A stretch of DNA of 64,000 bases from Candidatus Adlerbacteria bacterium (GTDB taxonomy: Bacteria > Patescibacteriota > Minisyncoccia > Phycocordibacterales > SBAW01): positions 229,033 through 293,032 of the forward strand of contig CAVVLG010000002.1 of assembly GCA_963749085.1 (NCBI GenBank). The letters are read 5' to 3'. Positions 18,543 to 61,961 of this stretch are shown here, piece after piece. Position 1 is the first letter of the stretch, and every line of letters starts with the position of its first letter. The notes under the pieces were generated by a model that saw only the letters and a list, made by a program, of their open reading frames with translations, was not told the DNA's origin and did not search any database. The position numbers and the translations under genes were made by a program.

Positions 18543-19001
18543 TTAGATCCCCTGATTGAGCACTCCACGGGTGAGAGGTCCTACAAAGCCACTTATAGGG
18601 CTGATGGTATTTTCCTTCTGATACTCCTTCACTGCCAGGTACGTCATAGGGCCAAACCAGCCGGTTGGCGCCGCTATGGCGAGATACCCGTCGGCGATAA
18701 GAATCTTCTGAAGTTCCATGACGTCGGTACCCCTATCGCGGTATTGGATATTGAACCTGAAGTTGTATGTGGATGCGCCAAGCACGACACCCTGCGAAGG
18801 TGCGCTGCCTGCATTGGTGCCGGTTGAACCCGTAGAGCCTACTTGATATCCGTATGACTGCGGCCCTGACACAACATCCCCACCCCCATAGCCAAAATCG
18901 GCAAGGGCCCAGGCGGGGGCCAACAGAAGCCCCAGCACAAGCATGGACGTGAGCATATACCCTGATATTGCCTTGTATAGCATAGCGTTACGGGATGCCA
19001 A
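18543..19001 (-). CDS. secreted protein with a C-terminal peptidoglycan-binding domain (PG_binding_1-like)
   Basis: Signal peptide ending AWALADFGYGG. C-terminus LQKILIADGYLAIAAPTGWFGPMTYLAVKEYQKENTISPISGFVGPLTRGVL matches the PGBD helix pattern (LQ..L...GY......G.FG..T..AV..FQ......G.VG..T...L). The start is probably at MLYKAIS (18983). Confidence 0.55.
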   Translation of the reverse strand: MASRNAMLYKAISGYMLTSMLVLGLLLAPAWALADFGYGGGDVVSGPQSYGYQVGSTGSTGTNAGSAPSQGVVLGASTYNFRFNIQYRDRGTDVMELQKILIADGYLAIAAPTGWFGPMTYLAVKEYQKENTISPISGFVGPLTRGVLNQGI

Positions 19002-19104: not shown

Positions 19105-19365
19105 TTAGAGTCTCAGTACCGTTGCTCTAGAAAATACGGATGGTAGGAAACACAAAGGTTGGAAAATGAAGAAATGAGGGGAAAACAATCGGCGGGATCG
19201 TGATAATGAGTGGCGTGAGAACAATCGGTGGACGTTGAAAACGTTCGGAACGTTAATGGGCGGGAAGCCGCCATAGCCGAAGTCGGCGAGTGCAGCTGCT
19301 GGTGCACATACTGCCAAAACAATAGTTGCGAAGAGTACGAAGGTTGAGAATCGTTTAAATAGCAT
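19105..19365 (-). pseudogene. truncated paralog carrying only the shared signal-peptide / ADFGYGG module of the PG-binding protein
   Basis: VLAVCAPAAALADFGYGG is encoded at about 19255-19300 and matches LAPAWALADFGYGG of the neighbouring gene. The downstream reading frame has no domain and a low-complexity, improbable composition. Confidence 0.3.
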
Positions 19366-19761
19366 ACCTGCAATGTAAGAGGCCAGTAATACTGAAAATA
19401 CCGGAGGAGAACCAACTACTACTAGTTTACGACGCAATACGGTAAAGAACAAATGAAGGAGTGTTTATAACGCTTTGGAGCAGTGTGGAGTGCAAAAACG
19501 GGTAGGAAAAGGGGTCGTCATATACCTCGTCGGTGGTGAAGATGATATAGCCCACACCATAACTCTGCAGCAAGCGCACCGTCGCGTCTTGGGTAGTGGT
19601 GGCGTTTGACGTCACCGCCGCTTCTATTGCTTGGTACCCCGGGGTGATAGTTCCCTGATCCGAGAGCGGTAGAAAGAAGCAATCTTTTCAGCTGGGGTCA
19701 TACCCCAGTATATTAGAACGCTCGTTCTAAAGGCAAGCTGAAGGCGTGGTATAGTGTGACA

Positions 19762-20424
19762 TCAGCCGAAGTCAACATCGACGTATTTTTTATATTCCTT
19801 CCCTAATACCATTCTGGCGGGAAAGGTATTGTTTGCCTTTGAAGCGGTGGGAAAGGGAATAAAAGGGTTGTGCTTTATGAATTGTGCGCCCGAACTTCCA
19901 TATTTGTCGAGACCGGCAAGCGCATATGCCAGACAATGTACAAAATGGTCGGGCCCATTGCGCTTCCAGATAAACTCTGCGCCATAATTAGTGGCTACAT
20001 CATGGCCCGGCTTATTAATGGCCGTTTTAATCTCGCGATAGATATGGTCAAACTGAGAGGCGAAGTCTTTCCACTCCTCAACTTTTCCATTGAGTCTAAT
20101 GCGGCCTATGTCTCTCAGTTGCTCGACCATCCACTGCAGCCATTGGTTCCTGTCTATACGAACCGTTCCCTGTTCCTCATTCTGTCCCCATCTGACCATT
20201 TCCTTCGATTTGTGGTCTTTTTGATAGTACACAAGGAACACGCGTCCAGGATATCTTGCTTGCAGTTTCCGTATGCCAATCAAATCTCCTCCCTGGTCGG
20301 CCATGATAATACTAGTGGGCCAACGCAAAAGGAACTTCTCTAGTGCGTCGTAAGGGTCGTAGTCTTTGGAGGGGGGTTTGCACTGGCCGTAATGGAACAC
20401 GCCTTGTTTGTTCATAAGGGTGTA
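19762..20424 (-). pseudogene. phage terminase large subunit, C-terminal (nuclease) fragment; separated from its N-terminal part by an IS insertion
   Basis: Contains the terminase nuclease C-terminal motif region (…DHFVHCLAYALAG, D-x-x-x-A-x-YA). Its reading frame continues without a stop up to the IS boundary at 20424. Removing 20425..21273 rejoins it in frame with the N-terminal fragment (…GVDTGLPIH-YTLMNKQGVFHYG…). Confidence 0.6.
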
Positions 20425-20433
20425 GAACCAGTC

Positions 20434-20874
20434 TCAAAAATAATGTTTGAGTAATAGCATGATGCACGCGAGCTTCACGAAGGCGGCAAAGTTCTGCAGT
20501 TTGTATTCGTAGCGAGTCACGAGCTTTCTCCAGTTGTGCATCCACGCGAACAGCCGCTCAATCTTCCACCGGCGCTTGTAGGAGCGCAGCGCCCTGCCGT
20601 CCTGTGTTGCTCTGCGCACCCGGCCTCTGCGATGCGGTGAAATGAGTTTGATGCGGTATTTGTTCAGGAGCGTTCCATCCAGCGGATCGGAATCATATGC
20701 TCGGTCAGCCGTGAGGCGAAGCGGATTCTGTCGGGTAAATCGCCGGGCAAGCGTGTCTTCAACCAACCGGACTTCGCTCGGAGAAGCAGAGGCCACATAG
20801 ACGGCGACTGGAAGAGAGCCTTCGTCCGCAATCGCCATGATCTTGGTGCCTTTCCCACGCTTCGTGGGTCCCAC
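20434..20874 (-). CDS. IS5-family transposase OrfB (DDE catalytic part, -1 frame)
   Basis: …LTADRAYDSD…YKRRWKIERLFAWMHNWRKLVTRYE carries the C-terminal D…E of the DDE triad and the conserved R-x3-E-x2-F-x-W-x-K. It overlaps orfA by about 210 bp, with the A6G motif inside the overlap. Confidence 0.7.
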   Translation of the reverse strand: MGPTKRGKGTKIMAIADEGSLPVAVYVASASPSEVRLVEDTLARRFTRQNPLRLTADRAYDSDPLDGTLLNKYRIKLISPHRRGRVRRATQDGRALRSYKRRWKIERLFAWMHNWRKLVTRYEYKLQNFAAFVKLACIMLLLKHYF

Positions 20875-21206
20875 GCCAAGACCCCCTTTTTTGCCCCCGC
20901 GAAGGTGGCATCGAGAAAGCAGCTCCTGAGCTTGATGCGCCCCCGGTATTCCATGTCCATGGCCAGGGCTTCGACGATGCGGTCAAAGGCGCCGCTCTCC
21001 ACCCACTGCTGGAACCTGCGATGGCAGGTCTGGTAGGGCGGGTAGTCTTTCGGCAGGTGCTTCCACTGGGCGCCGGTCTTCAGTGCCCAGAGGATACCTT
21101 CCAGTATCTTGCGGTCGTCCTGCCGGGGACGGCCGCGGGTTTCCAAACGCTTGAGGGGTGTGACAAACGGAGCGATGACGCTCCACTGCTCGTTGGTGAG
21201 AGGCAT
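20664..21206 (-). CDS. IS5-family transposase OrfA (N-terminal HTH part)
   Basis: MPLTNEQWSVIAPFV...RGRPRQDDRKILEGILWALKTGAQWKHLPKDYPPYQTCHRRFQQWVESG is the conserved N-terminus of IS5/IS427-group transposases. Confidence 0.75.
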   Translation of the reverse strand: MPLTNEQWSVIAPFVTPLKRLETRGRPRQDDRKILEGILWALKTGAQWKHLPKDYPPYQTCHRRFQQWVESGAFDRIVEALAMDMEYRGRIKLRSCFLDATFAGAKKGVLAWDPRSVGKAPRSWRLRTKALFQSPSMWPLLLRAKSGWLKTRLPGDLPDRIRFASRLTEHMIPIRWMERS

Positions 21207-21273
21207 GGGCAGGCAAATTACGGGTAACGCCCTGTGCCTTTAGTCTACAACGGTATTTTTGAGATTGGTTCTA

Positions 21274-22314
21274 GTGAATGGGAAGTCCTGTATCAACGCC
21301 GATAATAATCCTGTCGCCTTGTTCATTGACTTCAGGCACGACGTTCTTTAACACAACAGTGCTGGGTATTTTGTTTTCCGAGGCGATGTAGGGAAGCCCA
21401 AGGACATAGTTGTAAAAGTATTGCTCACTTTTATGTGGGTCGTTCTTGGCTTCGATAATCTTCTCTGCGCTTATCCACGGACACATCAACTGAGAAATAT
21501 GATAGCCTCGAAATGTACCGAGAGCGGTGGCGAGCCATTGGCCTTTTTTTCTCACATCATTTGATAGAGGCGCGAAACAATACTTGCATTGATAGTGTTT
21601 CGTCTCAAGATTGATTGACTTGGGCCACGCAAGTATCTGCTTCACTGTACAATGGGGGCAGGTAATAACCCATTCTTTCTTGTCGCTCTGCTGCCAATAA
21701 ATGTCCACCCCAAATCCAGCCACGGAAGGGTGAGACCAATACCATCTGCTTGCTTCGGGTTTAGCTTGTTGTCGCGTCTCCATGAGCTTGACGTTCTCCC
21801 AGTTAGAGAAATCTAACTCGTCGTGTGCGTTTATATCTGAGGGATACATCATCGCTTGCGTGGGAATCTGCGTTCCACGGAAGCGTATCATCGAATCCCC
21901 CACCGCCTTATGTGACATGGTGTCTGAATTCTGCACCCATTTCTGTAGAGGAGGATTTTGGGCTATGAGCCGGTTAAATGTTCCGGACACCATCTCGTAC
22001 GTCGAATCCTCAGTAGGAAGGGTATACACTATCTGTTTCTTTTGATGGTAGGCGATGTAGAGGCACTTCAATATCTGCGCCGTCGTCATGCCGACCTGAG
22101 GTGGTTTGAGCACCACCATTAACGGGGAGAAGTCGTTGTAGATATCCTTTAGGAACTTGTGGTCGTCAAATTCAATAGGTTCTCCCACCTCATTCACGAG
22201 CGTAGATGCCCATAAGGACGGGTAACGACTGTATGCTTGCTCTATCTCCTCATCACTGAAGCTTGAGAAGTCTATCGGCGAGCTCTCTGATTTTTGGGGT
22301 ATACGTAATCTCAT
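21274..22314 (-). pseudogene. phage terminase large subunit, N-terminal (ATPase) fragment, ending at the IS insertion
   Basis: 347 aa with a Walker-A-like VLKPPQVGMTTAQIL, ending IIGVDTGLPIH. The stop codon (cta at 21271-21273) lies inside the IS right-end region. Confidence 0.6.
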
Positions 22315-22660
22315 GTTTTATAGTGAGCGCATGTTCTTTCACTTTCGCACCGTATTTCGCAGAGTTATGCTCGAGCCAATACTTAATCGCTGGCCAATGC
22401 TTGTCTTTGCTCAGTAGGATGAGTTGGGATTCGTTCATATCATTGATGAATTCGATCCCTTGCTTTATCGCCTCGACGGCCTGCCGCCTGAATACCTCAT
22501 CCTCCTGTAGCCAGCGGTAGTAGGTGGGACGCGATACCCCGGCTTTCTGGCAGGCGACCTGAATGATGGGCCACTCTTTGAGCGCATCGAGCATTTTTTG
22601 CTTATTCTCGATCATGCGCTCCTCAACGGAGGGGACTTCTTTTATTTCTTCTTCACTCAT
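22253..22660 (-). CDS. phage terminase small subunit-like HTH protein
   Basis: 135 aa with an HTH (ACQKAGVSRPTYYRWLQEDEVF). Immediately upstream of, and overlapping, the large terminase gene. Its start overlaps the stop of the ParB::MTase gene (ATGA). Confidence 0.5.
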   Translation of the reverse strand: MSEEEIKEVPSVEERMIENKQKMLDALKEWPIIQVACQKAGVSRPTYYRWLQEDEVFRRQAVEAIKQGIEFINDMNESQLILLSKDKHWPAIKYWLEHNSAKYGAKVKEHALTIKHEITYTPKIRELADRLLKLQ

Positions 22661-23934
22661 ACCTTCTTTGGAATGAGGCCAGTAAGCTGCGACCAGCGGT
22701 TGAGTATGACCGAGGCGTACAGGGGGGATTCCTCCATGACGTAGCAGCGCCGCTGCATCTTTATCGATGCTATGAGCGTGGAGCCGCTACCGCCGAATGG
22801 GTCGAGCACGAGATCCCCGCGCTTCGTGAGTACCTTGATATAGGGTATGAGGATATCAACTGGCTTTGACCTAATGCCCTGGTGGGATGCATGCCGGTCA
22901 TATGTCCCATGTTCGATAAAGTCGGTGGGCTGATTGTGCATGTCTTTTTCGTAGCCTCCCCAGTACGGCTTCCCCTGCATAGCGTGGAGCGCGCTCTCAT
23001 ACACATTCTGTAGAAGCTCATCTTCCCGAGCAGTGTTGAGGGACATCTTCACGTTGGAGGAGCCGACCATGGCGATAGCACGCGGAGCAGAGAATTTGTA
23101 ATTGGCGGAGTAGCTCGGCCCGCGATTTCCCACATGCCACACCAGCATATTTTTGACTTGCCAGTACTTCTCCATCTCATCCGAAATGTGGCGAATGTGT
23201 TGCCAGTCCTCAAAGACGATGATATGAAAGTCGTCCTTGGCGGCTGCCTGCACATGTGCCATCCATCGCGGCGTGCTCGAGACGACATTGCTTTTCTTTC
23301 TCCTGCCGTGGAGCAGATAGGGCGGAGACGTGAGACACAGATCCACTTTATTTTTGCCTATGAGTGTGCGCATATGGGCCCCGATGGTGGGGTCTCCGCA
23401 TACGAGACGGCTGCCGCTCAAGTCATACATGTCGCCTTTTTCGACGTTGAGGCGTTTGTGATCAAGATTCGCTACTTCTTCCTCCAGATCAAACGGCTTG
23501 GGTGTTATGTCGATAGTGAAGATATCGTCAAGCTCTTCACTAGTGAACCCGGCGGCGGAGAGGAATGTCTCGTCGAATTTTTCGAGCAGCGTTTCGTCCC
23601 ATGCGCCCCTATTTTTGTTGAGGCGAAGATTTAATTGTTTCTCCCGCTCTAAGTCGGGGATGTTGATATATAGCACCGGCACGATTTCAATACCGAGTTG
23701 CTTGATAATGGAGAGGCGAAAGTGGCCGCCGATGACGACGCCCTTTCGCTCCGGCGCACTATTCACGATCAACGGTTCGACGATGCCGAAGCTCGTGATG
23801 CTTTCTTTTAATTGGTTCTCCGCTTTCTTGTCCCACGTTCTTGGGTTATATTCTGCGGGTTTGAGGGTAGCGATTGAGACATGCTCAATGCGCAGGCCCC
23901 CAGGAACCTTTGTATTTGTCATGGTACTGAACAA
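22657..23934 (-). CDS. fusion protein: ParB-like nuclease N-terminal domain with DNA N6-adenine/N4-cytosine methyltransferase
   Basis: N-terminus IEHVSIATLKPAEYNPRTWDKKAENQLKESITSFGIVEPLIVN (ParB/Srx fold). MTase motif IV CLTSPPYLL and motif I VLDPFGGSGSTLIA (beta-class order: IV before I). This architecture is common in phage packaging modules. Confidence 0.75.
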   Translation of the reverse strand: MFSTMTNTKVPGGLRIEHVSIATLKPAEYNPRTWDKKAENQLKESITSFGIVEPLIVNSAPERKGVVIGGHFRLSIIKQLGIEIVPVLYINIPDLEREKQLNLRLNKNRGAWDETLLEKFDETFLSAAGFTSEELDDIFTIDITPKPFDLEEEVANLDHKRLNVEKGDMYDLSGSRLVCGDPTIGAHMRTLIGKNKVDLCLTSPPYLLHGRRKKSNVVSSTPRWMAHVQAAAKDDFHIIVFEDWQHIRHISDEMEKYWQVKNMLVWHVGNRGPSYSANYKFSAPRAIAMVGSSNVKMSLNTAREDELLQNVYESALHAMQGKPYWGGYEKDMHNQPTDFIEHGTYDRHASHQGIRSKPVDILIPYIKVLTKRGDLVLDPFGGSGSTLIASIKMQRRCYVMEESPLYASVILNRWSQLTGLIPKKV

Positions 23935-24424: not shown

Positions 24425-24518
24425 TCTCAAATTTGATCCCATACCCGACCGTCAACAAAAAAATAGGCCCACCCGCAAGGTGCAGGTGGGCCGTTATATT
24501 TCCAGAAAGGTGAGAACG

Positions 24519-24974
24519 TCAGTAGGAGAAGGCCCGTTCTTGTGCCTTCTTCTCGACCGGGGTTCTCGGCGCGGCCGGCAGCGTGAGCACGGTGGCTTCC
24601 TGGCCGGGCTGGAGACTGGTCAGAAGCACGATGTTGCCGTCCGCAAACTGGAGCGCGTCATGGTGGCGGTTCGCCAGCTCCTTGTCGACCTGGATGAAGG
24701 TCGCGGTGCGCTCAGCGCTCTTTGGCGGCACGCCGATGGTCTGCTTCTTGCCGTTGACGTCAGCTTGGTATGGGCCGATGCTCCGAGTGCGGATGCTTTC
24801 GGCGAAGGACAGTTCGGTGCCAGGGAGTACACAGATGGCAGTTGCACCACTGGCCGCTCCGGGGTCATTCACCGCTTTGAAGCCGCTGGTGCCGGTCGTG
24901 AAGTCATGCGTAACAAGCTTATCGGCCACTTTGGCGTCTCGTCGCTTGACATGCATCAGACTGTAGTCGCACAT
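24519..24974 (-). CDS. conserved hypothetical protein, 'MCDYSL' N-terminus family (151 aa)
   Basis: Start at MCDYSLMHV with an AAGGAG RBS 8 nt upstream. A paralog lies at 28253..28456. The fully overlapping antisense ORF 24354..25100 is rejected. Confidence 0.5.
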   Translation of the reverse strand: MCDYSLMHVKRRDAKVADKLVTHDFTTGTSGFKAVNDPGAASGATAICVLPGTELSFAESIRTRSIGPYQADVNGKKQTIGVPPKSAERTATFIQVDKELANRHHDALQFADGNIVLLTSLQPGQEATVLTLPAAPRTPVEKKAQERAFSY

Positions 24975-25128
24975 CGCTGTGCTCCTTTCCTGGTTACTGC
25001 TGCGAAGGAACAAAAACAAGCCCTTCACCACCGACCATACCACCCGCATTGCTGCCCTGCAATACATGGAGGTGGACAAGGATATTGTGTGGTAGCCTAA
25101 GGCCAGAGTAGGCTCTTGGGAGGAAACG

Positions 25129-25356
25129 ATGGAAAAGCAATCGGCAAGCTACCATATGGAAAGCGCGTTCGATGCATTCTGGAGGGCTACCAATTCGATG
25201 GTTGAATGTCAGTTGGCGGTCGTCACTGCCAGTATGACCGTTGGCCTGGAGTTTTGGGACCTATGGCATGTGTCTCGCGGACTCCGAGCCATCGAAGCGA
25301 TAAAGGAAAGCGCCTCCGGTGGCCATAGTGTTATTTACCTCAAGAAGTACGCGTGA
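25129..25356 (+). CDS. hypothetical protein (75 aa), first gene of a three-gene micro-operon
   Basis: GGGAGG RBS 6 nt upstream of the ATG. Followed by two further small RBS-preceded ORFs, 25389..25496 (35 aa, hydrophobic) and 25497..25655 (52 aa, TGAgcATG coupling). Confidence 0.35.
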   Translation: MEKQSASYHMESAFDAFWRATNSMVECQLAVVTASMTVGLEFWDLWHVSRGLRAIEAIKESASGGHSVIYLKKYA

Positions 25357-26220
25357 CTACCACTAGTTTAAGCTTGGGAGGAACCTATGGGACAACTGCT
25401 ACCTGACGTGGCTCTCGGTGTATGCCTCGGGCTCGCCTATCTCGGCATCACCTCGTGGGTGCCGGACCTCATCTCCCTCCTCGTGGCGGTGTGAGCATGG
25501 AGAACGAGAAAGAAGTCGAGAAGAAAGAGGGGAACAAGGGTGAGCTACTCTACCTTCCTTCCCCGATCCGGGACGCGGCTATGCTCATAGAGTTCGTGCG
25601 CCGATGCGAAGAGCAGGCGCGCGACCCGCATGGCAACGCCGCATTCGGACGCTAGCTTCCCAACATTGTCGCCGCCCTTCACCCGAAGGGCGGCATTCTC
25701 TTATATTAAACACTCTGTTACAAGTGACGTCGTTCATGGTGCGTTTTCGATACATCGCTGTGCTCTTCAGTGGCGCCGCGGTCGCCCCCAGGCATGCGCG
25801 GGGCCTTCTCTTGTCTCTTTTCATAGGAATCTAATGTTTCGCTTAATACTATTGTCCGCAGACTCGGGCGCACCAAGTTGCTCAATCGGCATCTGTCTCG
25901 ATCCCCGGTCTCCGACACCCCCGAGGCGACGCTGGTCATGAGCTTGGATACCAATCAAGAAACAAATGCAGCCCGAGTCATACGTTACTGCCGCTTGATT
26001 TGTTCAGCGGCTTTTCTTTTTTTGGTCTCTCAAACCACAAAAACGATAGCGTGAATCTGCGAGTTTTCTCGCTTTATTTGGTCACGAATATGCTTCATTT
26101 AAACCTCAGGGAGGCTGCGCAACGATTGCAGTGTTCGTGCGTATAATTAAAAGAACTCAATAACGTTCTCTAGCTCTTAGGTGCCGTGCCTGTTCCATTT
26201 ACTCACCTCAGAAACTAACT

Positions 26221-28399: not shown

Positions 28400-28456
28400 T
28401 TTATCGCCAACCTTCGCCGGTCGTGACGCCACGTTGTGAAGGCTATAGTCGCACAT
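28253..28456 (-). CDS. truncated paralog of the 'MCDYSL' protein (67 aa)
   Basis: MCDYSLHNVASRPAKVGDKLTTRDFRTGTRGFAASEDARVAVCVLPGTELAF aligns to the first 55 aa of the 24519..24974 product. GGAGGAG RBS. It ends prematurely relative to its paralog. Confidence 0.4.
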   Translation of the reverse strand: MCDYSLHNVASRPAKVGDKLTTRDFRTGTRGFAASEDARVAVCVLPGTELAFAKPVECEPGGLLGLG

Positions 28457-28576
28457 CGCAGCAACTCCTCCATTGGAGGCCCTCCAGCGACCAATAGGCT
28501 ATAGCAAAACGAGCACCACGTCACCCCAGTCGGCTCGTTCGTGCACACATTAGCCCCTGTGCTATACTGTAAACCT

Positions 28577-28843
28577 ATGAACACAGAGACCTTTTCGGTT
28601 CGCCTCGACCGTTCAGCAAAAACGAGGCTTCAAAAGCTCGCGAAGAGCACCGGTCGGAGCCGTGCATTCCTCGCGGCCGAAGCCATTTCCGCCTATCTCG
28701 ACATCAACGAGTGGCAGATCGCGGGCATCACCAAAGCACTGGCCTCGCTTGACCGAGGCAAAGCCATCGCACACATACGCGTGAGTGATTGGGTCGCTTC
28801 CTGGGAGACAAGGAAGGAGCGCCGAGCTCCTCGGGGCATATGA
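28577..28843 (+). CDS. parD: ParD/CopG-type ribbon-helix-helix antitoxin
   Basis: MNTETFSVRLDRSAKTRLQKLAKSTGRSRAFLAAEAISAYLD is an RHH N-terminus. Its stop overlaps the toxin start (ATGA). Confidence 0.6.
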   Translation: MNTETFSVRLDRSAKTRLQKLAKSTGRSRAFLAAEAISAYLDINEWQIAGITKALASLDRGKAIAHIRVSDWVASWETRKERRAPRGI

Positions 28844-34718: not shown

Positions 34719-34978
34719 AGACACCAGTATGCAAGGTTCTGAGGAAAAACAAAAGACCGTGCCGCTATGTAAAAGCTTTTTTGTCAACTCGACCAAAAAG
34801 GCTCCCGCAGAAGGCTTTTTTGGGGTGGAAATAAAACCCCATGTTAAGCCAAAAATCAAGTTCTCCGAGCCTTATTCCTAGTCCTTTTTGAGCGATGCCG
34901 TTGCCATTTTCAAAAAAAGTTTTCGTACCACTTATGCACAGTCAAGAAAAGTACCGCACCGTGGCGCCGGGGAGTATA

Positions 34979-37966
34979 ATGAAATTTCCGAGCGATATGG
35001 CGATCACCCAAAAAATAAAGAAGCGGAACGGGGAGATTGTCGATTTTTTTCCTGAGAAAATAACCATAGCTGTGCAAAAAGCGTTCGCGGCGGTGTTGGG
35101 CGACGCACACGAGCCTGATGCAGCTGACATCACACGCGTTGTCGCCGAAGCGATCGATGTGAAATTCGGCACCACGGCGTTCATGCCGTCGGTCGAAGAG
35201 ATCCAGGATTTGGTCGAAACCGCGCTCATGGAGCGGGGCTATTTTACCGTCGCGAAATCCTACATCATCTACCGCTACGAGCACGAGAAAATACGTGAGG
35301 AGAAAAAGCAAGAGGTCGCTGAAAAAATCGCTGAATCAAGCCTTTTTATCGTCAAACGCGACGGCTCCCGCGAGCGCTTCAGCGAAGTGAAACTCACCCG
35401 CACCTTTCTGCGTGCGGCGGAGGGGCTCGAGCGCTTTATAGACGTGCCCTCAATCATTGGGCGAGTGCGCCAGGAACTCTACGAAGGTATAAAATCAACC
35501 GATATACACGAAGTGCTTATCATGGTCGTGAGATCGATGATCGAGCGGGATCCCGCTCACTCCACCATCGCCGCGCGGCTGCTGCTTCAGTCGATGTACA
35601 CGCAGGTATTCGGCCAATTCGATTATGCGCGCGTGGAAGATGCGCACCGCGCCGCATTCATTGAGACCATTGAGCGCGGCGTCGATATCGGGCAGTTCGA
35701 TCCGGAACTTCTCACATTCGATGTACCGGCGCTTGCCGAGGTGCTTCAGATAGAGCGCGACCGTGAATTCAAGTATCTGGGACTACAGACCCTCCAGAGC
35801 AACTATCTCTCCAAGGAGCACGGCACGAAAAAGCTCCTCGAGACCCCGCAGATATTCTGGATGCGCGCCGCCATGGGCATGGCGCTCGCGGAGAAAACGT
35901 CGGAAGAAAGACAGCGCTACGCCGTAGAGTTCTACGAGGTCATGTCCTCCATGTACTACACGCCCTCCTCCCCGACGCTCTACCACTCCGGCCTCATGAA
36001 ACCTCAGCTTTCATCCTGTTTCCTCTCGACCGTGCCGGATGATCTTCATGCCATCTTTGCGGAATTTGGCGACGGGGCGCAGTTGCTCAAATATGCCGGG
36101 GGGCTCGGCACCGACTGGACGCCGGTGCGCGCCACAGGCTCTCTCATCAAAACGACCGGGGTTGAAAGCCAAGGCGTCATACCGTTTCTCAAAATCGCCA
36201 ACGACGTCACTATTTCCATTAACCGCTCGGGACGCCGCAGGGGTGCCCAGGCCGTGTATCTTGAATACTGGCATGCTGACATTGAAGATTTCATAGAACT
36301 CAGAAAGAACACGGGAGACGAGCGCAGGCGCGCCCACGACCTCAATACCGCCGTGTGGATCCCCGATCTCTTTATGAAACGCCTCGCCGAGGACGGCTAT
36401 TGGACCCTCTTCTCCCCTTCGGACGTCCCTGAGCTCCACGAGCTCTACGGCAAGAGGTTTGAGGAGATGTACCGTCACTACGAGAAGCTCGCGGACGCGG
36501 GACAAATACCCATGTTTAAGAAAATCCGCGCAGCGGAGCTCTGGAAAAAACACCTTACTATGCTCTTTGAGACCGGGCACCCCTGGGTCACGTGGAAAGA
36601 TCCCAGCAATATACGCTCGCCGCAAGACCACGTGGGTGTGGTGCATTCGAGCAATCTGTGCACGGAGATAACGCTCAATTCTTCAGCGACTGAAACCGCC
36701 GTGTGCAACTTGGGTTCTATAAACATGGCAAAGTTCGTCGAGAACGGCAAGTTCAATCGCGACACGGTAGCCCGCGTGGTACCGGTCGCCATGCGCATGC
36801 TCGACAATGTCATAGACATCAACTACTACCCAACTGAGAAAACCCGCAACTCCAACATGCGCCACCGCCCGGTGGGATTGGGACTCCGGGGCCTCCAAGA
36901 CGCGCTCTATAAAGCAGGACTTAATTTCCACTCGGAAGAAGCGGTGCGCTTTTCGGACGAGACTATGGAGACCATTGCCTACCACGCCATACTCTCCTCC
37001 GCACTCCTCGCTAAGGAGCGCGGATCCTACGAGACTTACAAAGGCAGCAAATGGAATCGCGGGATATTCCCACAGGACACGATAGCGCTTCTGGAGCAGG
37101 AGCGCGGGATGATCATAGACGTGCCGCGTCACGAGACACTCAATTGGCAGCTGGTGCGCGAATCGGTGAGGCAGTGGGGCATGCGCAATTCCAACTGCAT
37201 GGCCAACGCGCCGACCGCCTCGACCGCCAACATCGCCGGCTGCTATCCCACCATTGAACCCATTTACAAAAACCTCTATGTGAAGAGCAACATGGCGGGC
37301 GATTTTATGGTGGTCAACGAATTTTTGGTTGATGATCTCAAAAAATTGGGGCTCTGGAGCGAGGAGATGCTGGAGAAAATTAAATACCATGACGGCTCGG
37401 TGCAACAGATATACGAAATCCCGCCTGCCATTCGAGAAAAGTACAAGGAGGTCTTTGAGATAGATGCTCAGTGGCTCGTCAAAGCAGCGGCCTATCGCGG
37501 CCGCTGGATAGACCAGAGTCAGTCGCTCAACATATTCTACGGCGGCACCTCTGGCAAAGCGCTTTCGGAAATCTATCAATACGCCTGGAGCTTGGGGCTT
37601 AAAACCACCTACTATCTGCGCACCATGGGGGCGTCCCGCATCGAGAAATCGACCGTCAATATGGGCAAATTTGGCAGCACCTCCAAGCAAGACGAGGGGG
37701 TAGGCGCCATGGTCACACCCTCAAGCGTCCTTATCGAAGAGACCGTCATGGTCGCTTCAGTTTCCTCACCCTTAAGCGACGTTGTACTCTCCGCTATGGA
37801 GGTGGCCCCCCGCGAGACCCTTCCGGTAATGCCGATACAACTGCACGAGCAAACCGCGTACGAAGCACCGAGGACTGAAGTGTCAGACAGTATGTCTTCC
37901 TTTGAACTTCCCAAGAACCCTAAAATCGAGATAATCGGCGAAGCGTGCGAATCCTGCTCCGCTTAG
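34979..37966 (+). CDS. nrdA: ribonucleoside-diphosphate reductase large (alpha) subunit, class I-like, with two N-terminal ATP-cone domains
   Basis: ATP cones ITQKIKKRNGEIVDFFPEKITIAVQKAF and FIVKRDGSRERFSEVKLTRTF. Catalytic SNLCTEI. NAPTASTANI. Tyr-Tyr dyad in GLKTTYYLRTM (class I radical-transfer YY). C-terminal redox Cys pair GEACESCSA. GGAG RBS before MKFPSDM. Confidence 0.8.
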   Translation: MKFPSDMAITQKIKKRNGEIVDFFPEKITIAVQKAFAAVLGDAHEPDAADITRVVAEAIDVKFGTTAFMPSVEEIQDLVETALMERGYFTVAKSYIIYRYEHEKIREEKKQEVAEKIAESSLFIVKRDGSRERFSEVKLTRTFLRAAEGLERFIDVPSIIGRVRQELYEGIKSTDIHEVLIMVVRSMIERDPAHSTIAARLLLQSMYTQVFGQFDYARVEDAHRAAFIETIERGVDIGQFDPELLTFDVPALAEVLQIERDREFKYLGLQTLQSNYLSKEHGTKKLLETPQIFWMRAAMGMALAEKTSEERQRYAVEFYEVMSSMYYTPSSPTLYHSGLMKPQLSSCFLSTVPDDLHAIFAEFGDGAQLLKYAGGLGTDWTPVRATGSLIKTTGVESQGVIPFLKIANDVTISINRSGRRRGAQAVYLEYWHADIEDFIELRKNTGDERRRAHDLNTAVWIPDLFMKRLAEDGYWTLFSPSDVPELHELYGKRFEEMYRHYEKLADAGQIPMFKKIRAAELWKKHLTMLFETGHPWVTWKDPSNIRSPQDHVGVVHSSNLCTEITLNSSATETAVCNLGSINMAKFVENGKFNRDTVARVVPVAMRMLDNVIDINYYPTEKTRNSNMRHRPVGLGLRGLQDALYKAGLNFHSEEAVRFSDETMETIAYHAILSSALLAKERGSYETYKGSKWNRGIFPQDTIALLEQERGMIIDVPRHETLNWQLVRESVRQWGMRNSNCMANAPTASTANIAGCYPTIEPIYKNLYVKSNMAGDFMVVNEFLVDDLKKLGLWSEEMLEKIKYHDGSVQQIYEIPPAIREKYKEVFEIDAQWLVKAAAYRGRWIDQSQSLNIFYGGTSGKALSEIYQYAWSLGLKTTYYLRTMGASRIEKSTVNMGKFGSTSKQDEGVGAMVTPSSVLIEETVMVASVSSPLSDVVLSAMEVAPRETLPVMPIQLHEQTAYEAPRTEVSDSMSSFELPKNPKIEIIGEACESCSA

Positions 37967-50921: not shown

Positions 50922-51437
50922 CTAAACCAGAGTCTCCAGATATTTATCGATTTCTTCTTGGGATTTTAAGGTGATTATTTTGCTACGATATTCTTTTATA
51001 AATTGCCTGAGTTTTGGTCCTTGAGTGCGTGTACGTCGGATAATTTCAAAAAAGAACGTCATCTCATGCCATGTGGTTAGTTCCCCGTGTCGGGTTGAGG
51101 GTCTTAGTATGCGCTTAGCGTGATTAAGCAATCTGCGCCACAGAGGAATATCCAGAAAAATAATGACATCTGCTCTTTTGGCTATCTCTGGGGCTTGACG
51201 CAAGTAGAAACCGTCAGAAACCCATGAATCCGCAGCAATGGCGGCTAAGGCCTTCTGTCTCACAAACGCTCTCACCCTTTCTCGCTCCGCTTCGGAAGTA
51301 TGTTGGTCTACGTGAGTTCCACCAGCCTCAAACCAGAAGCGGTCTAGGTGGATATGCGGTATAGATAACTTCTCACTTATTTTTTCGGCAAGTGTTGTCT
51401 TCCCACTTCCCGCCATACCCACGATGCTTATACGCAT
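50922..51437 (-). CDS. P-loop NTPase of the adenylate-kinase-like / topology-modulation (FlaR-like) family
   Basis: MRISIVGMAGSGKTTLAEKISEKLSIPHIHLD (Walker A next to the N-terminus; nucleoside-monophosphate-kinase-like layout). 171 aa. Confidence 0.55.
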   Translation of the reverse strand: MRISIVGMAGSGKTTLAEKISEKLSIPHIHLDRFWFEAGGTHVDQHTSEAERERVRAFVRQKALAAIAADSWVSDGFYLRQAPEIAKRADVIIFLDIPLWRRLLNHAKRILRPSTRHGELTTWHEMTFFFEIIRRTRTQGPKLRQFIKEYRSKIITLKSQEEIDKYLETLV

Positions 51438-51508: not shown

Positions 51509-52078
51509 ATGTCTAAGAGCAAGACTATCTACGTATTCATTGACGCATCAAATCTGTGGGCAGCGCAGAAGGCAAAAGGTAAGGTCTTTGATTATGCCAA
51601 ACTGGCCAACTACATAAAGGAGAAGTTCTCCGCCAGCACTTTCCAGATATTTTATTACACCGCATACCCGGCTGAGGGGACACGGGCATATAGCCTGGAT
51701 GGGAGGCACAAATTTTTTACTTTCCTCAAAAAAGGTCTCGGGTTCATTGTAAGAAAGAAGGAACTGAAACGGATTTCCATACTTGATGAAGATGGTGAAT
51801 CCATTCAAGAGAAAGGAAACATGGACGTAGAGATGACGATTGATGCTCTCCATCACCTGTCAAAATACGATGTCGCTGTCTTCTTCACAGGCGATTCTGA
51901 TTTCCTTGCCCTTGTCACTTATTTACGGGAAGGAGGCAAGCAGGTATTTATCTTCTCCTCTAAAAACAATGTGTCTCAAGAGCTACGGACGGGTGGCGAC
52001 GGCTATTTTGATGTTTTAACTTTGGAAGAGGATATTTGGGGACGGGATTTGAAGTACCGTTCTAAAGATAATAAATAA
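51509..52078 (+). CDS. NYN-domain (LabA-like PIN-fold) protein
   Basis: IYVFIDASNLW…DVEMTIDAL…FFTGDSDFLALV…GKQVFIFS matches the NYN/LabA acidic-residue pattern. Confidence 0.6.
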   Translation: MSKSKTIYVFIDASNLWAAQKAKGKVFDYAKLANYIKEKFSASTFQIFYYTAYPAEGTRAYSLDGRHKFFTFLKKGLGFIVRKKELKRISILDEDGESIQEKGNMDVEMTIDALHHLSKYDVAVFFTGDSDFLALVTYLREGGKQVFIFSSKNNVSQELRTGGDGYFDVLTLEEDIWGRDLKYRSKDNK

Positions 52079-53497: not shown

Positions 53498-55444
53498 TTA
53501 ACACAAAGTTAGGTTAGAACATCGTCCTACATGCGGAGCCAGCAGCAAACTTAATGCAATTCTAGGAAAATTTGAACGCGCTGCGCGGAGCGCAGCGTAT
53601 TGTTTTACGGGGGTTTCTTCAACTTTTTTATTTCGCAAAATCAGGTTCGAGCCGAAAATTTCTTGGAGGGAGGATTTTTTGGAGGGAAGGTCGCCGTTTT
53701 TTGCTATTTCATCAAGCATTTGTGCTTTGTTTATCCACTCGCGCATAGGTTCGAGCCACGGGTGTTGGCCTCTTTGAGACTTGGCTATAACCTCCTCCAG
53801 CGATCTGCACTCCGACATGAGCGCGGCTCGTCGTTTTAGATACTCCGGCCGCTCAACATCCTGATCTATAAACGTGGTTGTAAGGCGGTCGAGTTTACGG
53901 CTGATATCCGCAACCTTGTCCCGTAGACTGGAAACGAAGGCCGCCGCCGTGCGCGAAGTAGCTCTCTCGTCCTCGTCCGCAAGTTTGAATAGTCCTTGCG
54001 CCCAGTCCTCCGGCATTGTGTAGTGCGATAGTATCTCGGAGAGATCGGTAATGAGGACTTCTTCTCTGACGTAGAGTTGGGAACAACGAACCGAAAGATT
54101 TTTCTTCGTACAGCGATAATAGGTGTGGCCTTTCTGAACTTCGGCCGTGATCATGCAACCGCACTCACCACACCGGAGTAAGCCGCAAAGTATCTTCGGC
54201 TCTTTGTCTGGCTTCTGTGGATGTCCACGACGGACAAGGATCGTCTGCACTTTATCGAAAAGTTCTTTGTCTATGAGTGGGGTGTGCTTGCCCTCGTATG
54301 TCTCTCCGGCATAGCGAAAATGTCCGTAGTAAAAAGGATTGGAAAGAATAAACTTCGCTCGATCTTTTTGTAGCCGATTGCCGTAAATGCTCGTAACGCC
54401 GTTGTTGTATAGGAACTGTGAAATATCTTCAAGTCGAGAGTTGCCTTTGGCGTATAGCTCAAAGGCGGCTCTGATAAATCTAGCCTTCTTGCGATCAACG
54501 ACGATGGTTTTAGCCCGCACATCGTTTAAGTAGCCCGCCGGAGCCGTACCGGGGAAATGCCCGATGGCCGCCTTATGACGTAGCCCACGGCTCGTATTTG
54601 CGCTTAGGTCGCGTATAAACTGGTTAGCCATACCGAACTCTACGGACATCATAAGCACGTTGTCGTTCGAGACGTGGCTTCTATCATGCGTTTGGATATG
54701 CCGTATCGTCCCCTGCTGCAACAGCCAACTTATCTGTCCGCCGTCCACCGGATTGCGAGCAAGACGATCCAACTTCCAACAGATGATGCCCTGTGCCTCG
54801 CCCTGCTGTATCCGATTAAGCATTTCATTAAAGACAGGACGGCCGGGCATCTTAGCCGTTTTCTTCTCTACAAATTCTGCTGCGACGTTTAAACCTGCGC
54901 TTTTCGCGAGCGAACGAAGTTCTGCTAGTTGGCCTTCAATCGAGAGGACTTGCTTGTCCTCGACATCAGTGGATTTGCGGGCATAGAGGAAGTAGTGGGA
55001 CATAGGTACTGAAGCCATGACTTCATATAGAAGACGACTTTTGAGAGCGAGCGTAAGACAAACTCGGAATTGTGAAATCATCAGGGCGTGGGCGATGAGC
55101 GGCGAGGTATGCTTCAATTCCTGCACGCGGCGCAAAATTCCTTGCCGCTCCTGCGCGTCCTTTGCCAACACCTCAACGCCCTTTCGGTCGAGAGAATAGA
55201 CGACGTGGGCGGACGCTAGGTTTGCCGCTTTTTGAACCTTCGGCCGATCAAGGTAGCCATGCTGGAAAAGAAGGCTGAGGCGGTTCCCGATGCCTCGGTC
55301 GCTCCCTTCGTGTAGAGACACAAGTTGCTCCGTATTCAAAAAGCGGTACTCGGCCACATCGGAGAGGATTGCGGTGTCGCGGGGCTGTAATCTGAGGGGG
55401 TCGGCTTCACCTCGAACGAACTTTTGACGACGTGGTTTAGGCAT
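53498..55444 (-). CDS. large serine recombinase (resolvase catalytic domain + recombinase domain + zinc ribbon + coiled coil) with a roughly 140-aa N-terminal extension
   Basis: Catalytic YARKSTDVEDKQVLSIEGQ (Ser nucleophile). ICWKLDRLARN. CGLLRCGECGCMITA zinc ribbon. C-terminal coiled coil. An in-frame alternative start (MASVPMSHY, 55018) would remove the N-terminal extension. Confidence 0.75.
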   Translation of the reverse strand: MPKPRRQKFVRGEADPLRLQPRDTAILSDVAEYRFLNTEQLVSLHEGSDRGIGNRLSLLFQHGYLDRPKVQKAANLASAHVVYSLDRKGVEVLAKDAQERQGILRRVQELKHTSPLIAHALMISQFRVCLTLALKSRLLYEVMASVPMSHYFLYARKSTDVEDKQVLSIEGQLAELRSLAKSAGLNVAAEFVEKKTAKMPGRPVFNEMLNRIQQGEAQGIICWKLDRLARNPVDGGQISWLLQQGTIRHIQTHDRSHVSNDNVLMMSVEFGMANQFIRDLSANTSRGLRHKAAIGHFPGTAPAGYLNDVRAKTIVVDRKKARFIRAAFELYAKGNSRLEDISQFLYNNGVTSIYGNRLQKDRAKFILSNPFYYGHFRYAGETYEGKHTPLIDKELFDKVQTILVRRGHPQKPDKEPKILCGLLRCGECGCMITAEVQKGHTYYRCTKKNLSVRCSQLYVREEVLITDLSEILSHYTMPEDWAQGLFKLADEDERATSRTAAAFVSSLRDKVADISRKLDRLTTTFIDQDVERPEYLKRRAALMSECRSLEEVIAKSQRGQHPWLEPMREWINKAQMLDEIAKNGDLPSKKSSLQEIFGSNLILRNKKVEETPVKQYAALRAARSNFPRIALSLLLAPHVGRCSNLTLC

Positions 55445-60968: not shown

Positions 60969-61961
60969 ATGGGAATCATCAACGGTGGGAGCAATACAGA
61001 CCCAAACAAGATCCTGCCGATGAAATATCCGTGGGCACGCACGCACTATAAAAAAGGGGTGGCCAACAACTGGGTGCCCGAGGAGGTCTCCATGCAGCAG
61101 GACGTGGAGCTCTGGAAAAAGCAAGGAGGCCTCAGCGAGGATGAGCGCCGTATGATTCTCTGGAATCTCGGTTTTTTCTCGACCGCCGAGTCCCTGACCG
61201 CCAACAACATCGTGCTCGCCATCTACCGCCATATCACCAACCCCGAGTCGAGGCAGTATCTTCTGCGCCAGGCGTATGAGGAGGCGGTACACACCGACAC
61301 CTTCATCTACTGCTGCGATACCTTGGGCCTCAACCCGGATGATATCTATAACATGTACCAAACCATTCCCTCGATAAAGGAGAAAGATGATTTCGTGGTC
61401 GATATGACCAAGTCAGTGTTTGATCCGAATTTCTCCACTGTGGGCACCGAAAACATACAGAAGTTCGTGCACGACCTCGTCGGCTACTACGTCATCATGG
61501 AGGGTATTTTCTTTTATGCCGGTTTCGTCATGATGCTCTCCATGCTGCGCAAGAACCGCATGGTGGGTGTGGGGGAAATGTTCCAGTTCATCTTGCGCGA
61601 CGAGTCGGTGCATCTCGCCTTCGGCGCCGATCTGACCAATACCATCGTGGCGGAGAATCCGGAGATCTGGACGCCCGAATTCAAGAAAACACTAGAAAAA
61701 AATATTCTGCGCGGGGTGGAGCTGGAGAAAAAATATGCCGATGACGCGCTGCCGCGCGGCATCGTGGGGCTCGCTCCCGCTTCAGTCAAGCAGTACATCG
61801 AGCACATCGCCGACCGGAGGCTCGAGCGCATAGGGCTGGAGCGGCAATACCACAAGGACAACCCCTTCCCCTGGATGTCTGAGATCATGGATATGCCGAA
61901 GGAGAAAAATTTCTTCGAGACGAGGGTGACGGAATATAAAACAGGAGAGCTGGATTGGTAA
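60969..61961 (+). CDS. nrdB: ribonucleoside-diphosphate reductase small (beta) subunit, class I
   Basis: GAGGAG RBS. Di-iron ligand motifs EEAVH and RDESVH (E-x-x-H twice). KYPWA…NNWVPEEV N-terminal pattern. 330 aa. Confidence 0.8.
   Translation: MGIINGGSNTDPNKILPMKYPWARTHYKKGVANNWVPEEVSMQQDVELWKKQGGLSEDERRMILWNLGFFSTAESLTANNIVLAIYRHITNPESRQYLLRQAYEEAVHTDTFIYCCDTLGLNPDDIYNMYQTIPSIKEKDDFVVDMTKSVFDPNFSTVGTENIQKFVHDLVGYYVIMEGIFFYAGFVMMLSMLRKNRMVGVGEMFQFILRDESVHLAFGADLTNTIVAENPEIWTPEFKKTLEKNILRGVELEKKYADDALPRGIVGLAPASVKQYIEHIADRRLERIGLERQYHKDNPFPWMSEIMDMPKEKNFFETRVTEYKTGELDW

Follow-up and report, generated by a model that had tools for sequence, protein, structure and literature searches.

The 64-kb stretch of DNA analysed here (the window) is part of a 518-kb contig and contains a phage-type large terminase gene (terL) that is split in two by an insertion element. 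This raises the question of whether a working prophage has recently lost its packaging enzyme, or whether the element has landed in phage DNA that could be dispensed with. We favour the second answer with a probability of about 0.8, namely that an intact IS427-type insertion sequence (IS) inserted into the dispensable terL of a phage leftover and not into that of a working prophage. The parts of the split gene are as follows.

20425..21271, minus strand: complete insertion sequence of the IS5 family with IS427-group layout, 847 bp
20425..20442: transposase-distal terminal inverted repeat, GAACCAGTCTCAAAAATA
21254..21271: transposase-proximal terminal inverted repeat, GAACCAATCTCAAAAATA as read inward along the minus strand (reverse complement)
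20423..20424: TA target-site duplication, copy 1, placed by restoration of the terL frame
21272..21273: TA target-site duplication, copy 2, which together with the first G of the IS makes the TAG stop of the N-terminal terL fragment
21274..22314, minus strand: large terminase, N-terminal part, 347 codons up to ...GVDTGLPIH; comprises the ATPase domain and the first part of the nuclease region
19762..20424, minus strand: large terminase, C-terminal part, 220 codons and stop; YTLMNKQG...DVDFG

The 847-bp element lies between the two terL halves exactly as an earlier note on this DNA had proposed, and has a GC content of 58%, compared with 47% for the flanking terL. Its terminal inverted repeats are 18 nt long and match at 17 of 18 positions (or 20 nt long, again with a single mismatch, when the flanking TA is included); the repeats reported in the earlier note are thus present, and their length of "18/19" bp was a small miscount. 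When the repeat 18-mer is searched with up to two mismatches, the two IS ends are the only sites in the window, where none is expected (100 shuffles). Of four excisions made in silico, a single one, in which the IS is taken out with one TA (849 bp), gives an open frame, of 567 codons and a stop, with the empty-site sequence GTTCATAAGGGTGTAGTGAATGGGAAG; removal of 847 or 851 bp leaves 9 to 12 stops in the terL frame. A palindromic TA by itself could equally extend the inverted repeats, and it is this restoration of the frame that points to a true 2-bp duplication of TA, in agreement with what had been claimed. The N-terminal ORF, with its TAG stop, occupies 21271..22314 of the minus strand and encodes 347 aa. 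The junction of N-terminal terL and IS is found again in a separate assembly (Logan contig L001, run ERR12036785), which ends 26 bp into the IS, as expected of a break at a repeat. Misassembly is ruled out: on either side of the element lies half of the same gene, the halves join up in frame, and an independent assembly reproduces one of the junctions. An intein or intron is ruled out as the cause of the split, since the insert encodes a DDE transposase and has inverted repeats and the inteins of some terL homologues sit elsewhere, at about residue 509.

The rejoined terL is a full-length gene. Its 567 codons align without gaps to full-length phage terminases (best identity 74%), and the junction GVDTGLPIH/YTLMNKQG runs gap-free through the homologue consensus GVDTGLPIHYTCMNKQG. 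It matches Pfam GpA_ATPase (PF05876, 69.5 bits) and, in a single stretch of residues 22–524 that crosses the junction, the phrog_675 terminase large subunit profile (E=4.6e-80). The earlier description of a precisely interrupted GpA-type terL is borne out by these two matches and by the colinearity, and the comparison it had suggested, of the excised translation with full-length GpA-type terminases, shows the frames rejoining cleanly. There are 1,700 homologues, the full-length ones 550–573 aa long, and of the 229 alignment columns in which ten of them do not vary, 213 are retained here. The C-terminal 220 aa are 70–72% identical to homologues and lie under the phrog_675 profile, with no match to a Pfam nuclease domain. 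The gene has no lesion other than the IS. It ends at the junction TAG after the ATPase half, with the rest of the nuclease half cut off and left as a separate remainder, and is therefore dead. None of the 1,700 homologues falls between 74% and 100% identity, and the JGI metagenomes contain no match to this strain's flank from which a same-strain site, empty or occupied, could be read; the uninterrupted ancestral terL is a reconstruction and not an observed gene. The claim that the insertion is recent is plausible, but a 2-bp duplication cannot date it.

The transposase of the element is encoded in two overlapping frames.

20886..21206, minus strand: OrfA part of the transposase, read to the slippery site; DUF4096 DNA-binding region and first catalytic Asp, D99
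20434..20886, minus strand: OrfB part of the transposase, in the -1 frame; second Asp D168 and Glu E217, with its stop inside the distal inverted repeat region
20886..20892, minus strand: slippery heptamer A AAA AAG (A6G, AAAAAAG) in the OrfA/OrfB overlap, in the register A AAA AAG relative to OrfA

The overlapping orfA and orfB frames and the A6G programmed-frameshift motif had all been noticed earlier, and the motif indeed lies in the overlap, at 20886–20892; unshifted, the OrfA frame runs on to a stop at 20664. The fused OrfA-OrfB product is 257 aa long and matches NCBIfam NF033580 transpos_IS5_3 with 222 bits (cut-off 110 bits) over model positions 5–258 of 258, and Pfam finds DUF4096 (94.6 bits) and DDE_Tnp_1 (57.7 bits). 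D99, D168 and E217 are invariant in an alignment of 13 sequences, and the full D-D-E triad, with D99 in OrfA and the other two residues in OrfB, is present only in the fusion, which is colinear with single-ORF relatives across the frameshift point. Judged by its sequence, the element is an intact member of the IS5 family, as claimed in the earlier note from the letters alone; inverted repeats, the full-length NF033580 match and the invariant D, D and E all agree with this. It fits the IS427 group, an assignment that rests on layout and NF033580. A -1 slip of the ribosome on A AAA AAG would yield the transposase as an OrfA-OrfB fusion, and this fusion would be expected to bind the 18-bp inverted repeats and to insert the element by a 2-bp staggered cut.

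Many of the closest database relatives of the transposase are single ORFs of 255–260 aa, and one IS427-group member with a single ORF has been reported (PMC3281130), so the two frames might be read as a decayed single-ORF gene with a mutation in the A-run, and the IS as a dead copy. This has little chance of being right: the A6G is at the same position, with the same -1 two-frame layout, in two elements from other genomes that have diverged from this one by 22–24% in nucleotide sequence (L064 and L166, 76–78% identical), the frames contain no other stops and the catalytic residues are invariant. The two-ORF form is, moreover, the norm for the IS427 group (PMC3281130), and identical copies of OrfB on several contigs also speak against a dead copy.

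These copies are known as identical proteins only, not as DNA with flanks. The exact 146-aa OrfB occurs on two contigs and an identical 114-aa truncated copy on a third, of 12.5 kb. Because identical OrfB copies are present on at least two other contigs, the intact IS is probably multi-copy and recently active; the suggestion that it might be either is supported by these contigs and by the break of L001 inside the IS.

The closest full-length transposase among 5.8 billion proteins, named "IS5 family transposase", is 59% identical, and with at most that protein identity to anything retrieved, the element is, by sequence comparison, probably a new and previously uncatalogued member of a known IS group. 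The only match to it in plasmid-database DNA is a 145-bp stretch at 75%, its core 27-mer is absent from IMG/VR, and none of 80 related viral loci carries it. A scan of 596 Gb of genome contigs with the 18-nt inverted repeat pattern gave 80 loci, most of them chance matches to a pattern that is too short; among them L064 alone contains a true relative; short inverted repeat pairs are present in L025, L061 and L066. We note that putative short non-autonomous derivatives with the same 18-bp ends are found in Parcubacteria and Saccharibacteria genome bins.

Directly upstream of terL lie two further phage-derived genes.

22253..22660, minus strand: small-terminase-like gene (terS-like), 135 aa, overlapping terL; phrog_4044 (E=2.8e-9) and phrog_4102 (E=2.3e-6)
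22657..23934, minus strand: fusion of ParB-N and an N6_N4 DNA methyltransferase, 425 aa, the last of the three phage-derived genes

The order ParB-methylase, terS, terL is conserved in related phage contigs (L113, L116, L144 and L162), and type II methylase models cover the methyltransferase from end to end. When 6,887 ORFs from 84 related phage loci were compared with the window by tblastn, only terL, the terS-like gene, the ParB-methylase and one peptidoglycan-binding domain were found. No portal, capsid, tail or lysis gene is present in the 64 kb by tblastn or, for the neighbouring genes, by Pfam and PHROG. In the related phage contigs terL is followed by a gene of about 600 aa, putatively the portal gene; in the window it is followed by secreted-protein, amino-acid hydroxylase and glycosyltransferase genes. 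By Pfam and PHROG the neighbours of the fragment are glycosyltransferases, a hydroxylase, a TIG-domain protein, an MFS transporter and a ribonucleotide reductase, and a strong terminator at 24466–24492 closes the neighbouring chromosomal gene. There is no integrase near the fragment; the sole recombinase in the window, at 53498–55444, lies 31 kb off, with pyruvate-phosphate dikinase and other housekeeping genes in between. No direct repeats were found flanking the fragment, and the window has no tRNA genes and no Rfam RNA families that could be found. The IS therefore sits in a three-gene phage fragment of about 4.7 kb among ordinary chromosomal genes, and the window contains no functional prophage, although phage genes could lie elsewhere on the contig.

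Apart from the IS, the three phage genes are intact, which is unexpected for old debris; their intactness is compatible with recent truncation or with selection on the cassette. On the latter view ParB-methylase, terS and terL would form a stand-alone module that selection has kept and whose terminase the IS has recently disabled; the module could be a satellite-like or gene-transfer-like one for packaging, or a fragment that owes its retention to the methyltransferase. Each of the three genes has its full length and is colinear with the corresponding phage genes, and the complete methylase match is what such a module might show, but PADLOC gives no defence-system or other family match for terS or terL, and private changes at positions that do not vary in ten homologues are most numerous in this terL (16, compared with 1–12). 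The 16 changes fit relaxed constraint, a comparison confounded by branch length. We consider a selectively kept module improbable.

An otherwise complete, inducible prophage, just crippled by the IS in its packaging enzyme, is very improbable, since the lack of lesions elsewhere in its three genes, their conserved order and the young look of the IS are outweighed by a window in which the ORFs of 84 phage loci match nothing further, portal, capsid, tail and lysis genes are missing, the neighbours are not phage genes and the only recombinase lies far off past housekeeping genes. The earlier conclusion that a prophage packaging module has been freshly inactivated is accordingly not upheld.

The preferred reading, an IS in a dispensable phage leftover, can be put together as follows. 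The fragment, with its ParB-methyltransferase, small terminase and large terminase, would derive from a phage of an uncultured clade, and the IS5-family element would have transposed into a TA at codons 347/348 of its phage-type terL, duplicating the TA. We infer the order of events, that is, of the insertion relative to the loss of the remaining phage. The insertion would persist because it is most likely without cost, a neutrality that is itself a reading of the locus.

For annotation, the two terminase fragments should be entered as one IS-disrupted pseudogene and the orfA/orfB pair as one frameshifted IS5-family transposase, and the region should be left out of prophage counts. Even a gene disruption that is clean and looks fresh need not mean that a function was lost, since on the evidence of the window the phage was already gone. 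An IS in a leftover terL is an ordinary event of little importance beyond annotation, and a probably uncatalogued IS with relatives in Parcubacteria bins is a minor piece of evidence on how active mobile elements are in little-studied lineages. That the IS lineage and the short derivatives with the same ends are an actively spreading family in small-genome uncultured bacteria is a long shot, as is, separately, the idea that the IS has just knocked out a cassette kept by selection.

Among known elements the IS most resembles the IS427 group in its organisation. IS1248, ISPaes1, ISPbe2 and ISPze1 of Paracoccus are 832–865 bp long with inverted repeats of 13–21 bp, and IS5/IS427 elements make a 2-bp duplication and carry two ORFs and a frameshift motif, the DDE being complete only in the fused product (PMC3281130). 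The element described here shares with this group its length (847 bp, where about 800–1000 bp is expected), short inverted repeats (18 bp), 2-bp duplication, overlapping ORFs, frameshift motif, DDE motif complete only in the fusion and, probably, multi-copy occurrence. It is distant from the group in sequence (at most 59% protein identity), and the likeness is one of layout and NF033580. Its nearest relatives at the nucleotide level are L064, an 841-bp element in a Candidatus Parcubacteria MAG contig (DAICZX010000008.1) that is 78% identical, 6 bp shorter and likewise has TA on both sides, and L166, in a JGI metagenome contig (Ga0209210_1060508), which is 76% identical and has CTA before its left end (one flank read). 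In both, the terminal repeats are nearly identical to those here and the A6G position and the two-frame arrangement agree, and both are at other insertion sites in other genomes; by usual naming practice they and the present element are different IS isoforms or species.

The closest known terL proteins are the GpA-type terminases of uncultured phages of about 40–43 kb (phrog_675; IMG/VR contigs L086–L165 and Logan/ENA contigs L002–L005), which are 45–74% identical to the rejoined 567-aa terL and colinear over 96–99% of its length. They have a small-terminase gene upstream, as here, and several also have a ParB-methylase upstream, but the terL described here is interrupted by an IS, and neither the downstream gene of about 600 aa nor the other genes of those phages accompany it. 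Among isolated phages the nearest, which include SPO1-like Bacillus phages, have terL proteins that are at most 27% identical. IS-disrupted genes are found in cryptic or defective prophages of well-studied bacteria, and there too a mobile element survives in dispensable phage-derived DNA and inactivates a morphogenesis gene. In such cases most of the prophage is usually still recognisable, whereas here only three genes remain.

The large terminase gene (terL) is divided by a single insertion sequence (IS), and of four excisions compared only the one that takes out the IS and one TA (849 bp) restores a 567-codon open frame; excising 847 or 851 bp leaves 9–12 stops. The N-terminal fragment ends at a TAG in which the G is the opening base of the IS and TA the dinucleotide beside it. 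The features of the region are:

19762..20415, minus strand: terL C-terminal ORF, 217 aa from its ATG, the frame being open back to 20424
20425..21271, minus strand: IS, 847 bp, boundaries set by script
20423-4 and 21272-3: TA on both sides of the IS
20434..20874, minus strand: transposase frame OrfB, 146 aa, overlapping OrfA
20664..21206, minus strand: transposase frame OrfA, 180 aa, overlapping OrfB
20886-20892, minus strand: A AAA AAG, at which OrfA would shift back one base
21271..22314, minus strand: terL N-terminal ORF, 347 aa, from the ORF list
upstream of terL, minus strand: small-terminase-like gene (terS), 135 aa, weak PHROG matches (E=2.8e-9)
upstream of terL, minus strand: ParB-N/N6_N4 methyltransferase gene (phrog_498, E=5.4e-69)
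24466-24492: terminator beyond the methylase gene, closing the neighbouring gene

The IS ends, GAACCAGTCTCAAAAATA and GAACCAATCTCAAAAATA, are inverted repeats of 18 nt with one mismatch; counting the neighbouring TA they are 20 nt, again with one mismatch, and in the output of a repeat finder the arms reach 25 nt at 88%. The 18-mer, even when two mismatches are allowed, matches the window only at the two IS ends, and shuffled sequences nowhere. The ends, the flanking TA and the frame-restoring 849-bp excision are thus as the earlier note had described them; the repeats it reported are present, and only its count of "18/19" does not hold. The GC content is 58% in the IS, 47% in the surrounding terminase gene and 53% in the window; relative to host DNA the IS is shifted one way and the phage fragment the other.

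The rejoined terL protein matches Pfam GpA_ATPase (69.5 bits) and, in a single stretch (residues 22–524) that spans the 347/348 junction unbroken, PHROG 675 "terminase large subunit" (E=4.6e-80). Among 5.8 billion proteins searched, 1,700 matched, and the full-length homologues are 550–573 aa long with 96–99% query coverage; the best identity is 74%, with nothing in that search between it and the 100% match, the truncated fragment itself. The junction GVDTGLPIH|YTLMNKQG aligns gap-free with the consensus GVDTGLPIHYTCMNKQG (11 sequences), and by tblastn residues 3–349 of the closest phage terminase fall at 22299..21274 and residues 349–565 at 20427..19777. The excised frame, whose comparison with terminases had been proposed as a check, is therefore colinear with them, and because of these profile, homologue, junction and tblastn results the interrupted gene is, as judged from sequence, a genuine large terminase gene whose only lesion is the insertion. 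This terL family is common in IMG/VR, where many contigs are 40–43 kb and likely complete phage genomes; among isolated phages, even the nearest have terminases no more than 27% identical to that of the window. Three homologues (P0076, P0082 and P0115; 841–864 aa) have Hint/intein domains, the insert of ~280–300 aa lying by BLAST at ~residue 509 of the window protein (DHFVH|C motif), away from the point at which the IS entered.

Most probably an IS427-type element entered a TA within terL by ordinary DDE transposition, cut-and-paste or replicative, when the gene already belonged to dispensable phage debris. Selective retention of methylase, terS and terL as a cassette is improbable: where ten homologues are invariant, terL has 16 private changes and the others 1–12 (leave-one-out count), which weakly suggests relaxed constraint, although branch length confounds the count.

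The structural reading of the earlier note stands, but what it concludes about function, that a prophage packaging module has been freshly inactivated, is not borne out: the window holds a three-gene phage fragment and no prophage. When 6,887 translated ORFs from 84 related phage loci were searched against the window, they matched only terL, terS, the methylase and one peptidoglycan-binding domain (18.5 kb), so that a complete prophage struck by the IS is very unlikely. Related phage contigs have, after terL, a 58–70-aa gene followed by one of ~600 aa, the putative portal gene. In phage loci L113, L116, L144 and L162 the ParB-methylase likewise lies upstream of terL. Downstream of the window terL are small secreted proteins, a peptidoglycan-binding protein, a SpaA-like protein, an aromatic amino-acid hydroxylase and a run of glycosyltransferases, and past the terminator are a TIG-domain protein, an MFS transporter, ribonucleotide reductase and others. 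The window has no att-like repeats or tRNA genes, and its sole recombinase is 31 kb away, past pyruvate-phosphate dikinase. Since the neighbours are non-phage, further phage matches, att sites and tRNA genes are absent and the recombinase is distant, the phage-derived DNA is a ~4.7-kb, three-gene fragment, IS included.

In the closest phage contigs, L002 (1747-3321) and L004 (7444-8925), a gene for a Cpn60/GroEL-type chaperonin immediately precedes the terminase genes; nothing in the window fragment corresponds to it. The minus-strand ORFs at 18543-19001 and 19105-19452 share an N-terminal signal-like segment ending ALADFGYGG; the former runs on into a peptidoglycan-binding domain, and the latter, which may be a decayed paralogue, ends in low-complexity sequence. 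Between 24891-25458 and 28416-28714, three short collinear direct repeats (16–25 nt, 84–90% identical, ~3.3–3.5 kb apart) suggest a diverged duplication of a gene adjoining the phage fragment. The recombinase (53498-55444, minus strand) is a 648-aa large serine recombinase with an N-terminal Replic_Relax domain; with its neighbours, which encode an NYN-domain protein (51509-52078) and an AAA-kinase-like protein (50922-51437), it may belong to another integrated element unrelated to the terminase fragment. Ribonucleotide reductase subunit genes at 34895-37966 and 60969-61961 are 23 kb apart, and no Rfam family reaches gathering score in the 64 kb window.

Reading OrfA one base back through A AAA AAG gives a predicted 257-aa fusion with DUF4096 and DDE_Tnp_1 domains, which scores 222 bits (cut-off 110) against the NCBIfam equivalog transpos_IS5_3 over model positions 5–258 of 258. 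In an alignment with twelve relatives the fusion stays colinear across the shift point (AKKG|GLGVGPTKRGKGTK versus AKKGxxxVGKTKRGKGTK) and retains the invariant D99, from OrfA, and D168 and E217, from OrfB; the best full-length relative from the protein search is just 59% identical. Related elements in a Candidatus Parcubacteria bin (L064; 841 bp, 78% nucleotide identity, TA on both sides) and a JGI metagenome (L166; 76%) have two frames and A6G at the equivalent position, which argues for a programmed shift rather than a lesion and leaves little likelihood that the IS is a dead copy.

The window has one IS copy. The exact 146-aa OrfB protein is recorded on two contigs and, truncated at 114 aa, on a third (12.5 kb), and an independent Logan assembly (ERR12036785) recovers the chromosome, methylase, terS and N-terminal terL stretch and ends 26 bp into the IS. 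Such a break is expected at a repeat; at an empty/occupied polymorphism the assembly graph would break directly after TA. These observations, which bear on the earlier call to look for other copies, point to further copies elsewhere.

Short elements of 181–258 bp with terminal repeats of the IS type (GAACCAGTCTCAAAAATA...) and no transposase (L025:1356-1538, with TA on both sides; L061:3959-4216; L066:2656-2836) occur in Candidatus Parcubacteria and Saccharibacteria bins, and from their sequence look like non-autonomous (MITE-like) derivatives of the IS lineage; the bins in which relatives occur give only a hint of the host. The size, inverted repeat length, 2-bp duplication and two-ORF frameshift layout of the IS all agree with the published description of the IS427 group within the IS5 family (PMC3281130): by its layout the element is a newly found IS of an already known group, and its insertion an event of a well-known kind.
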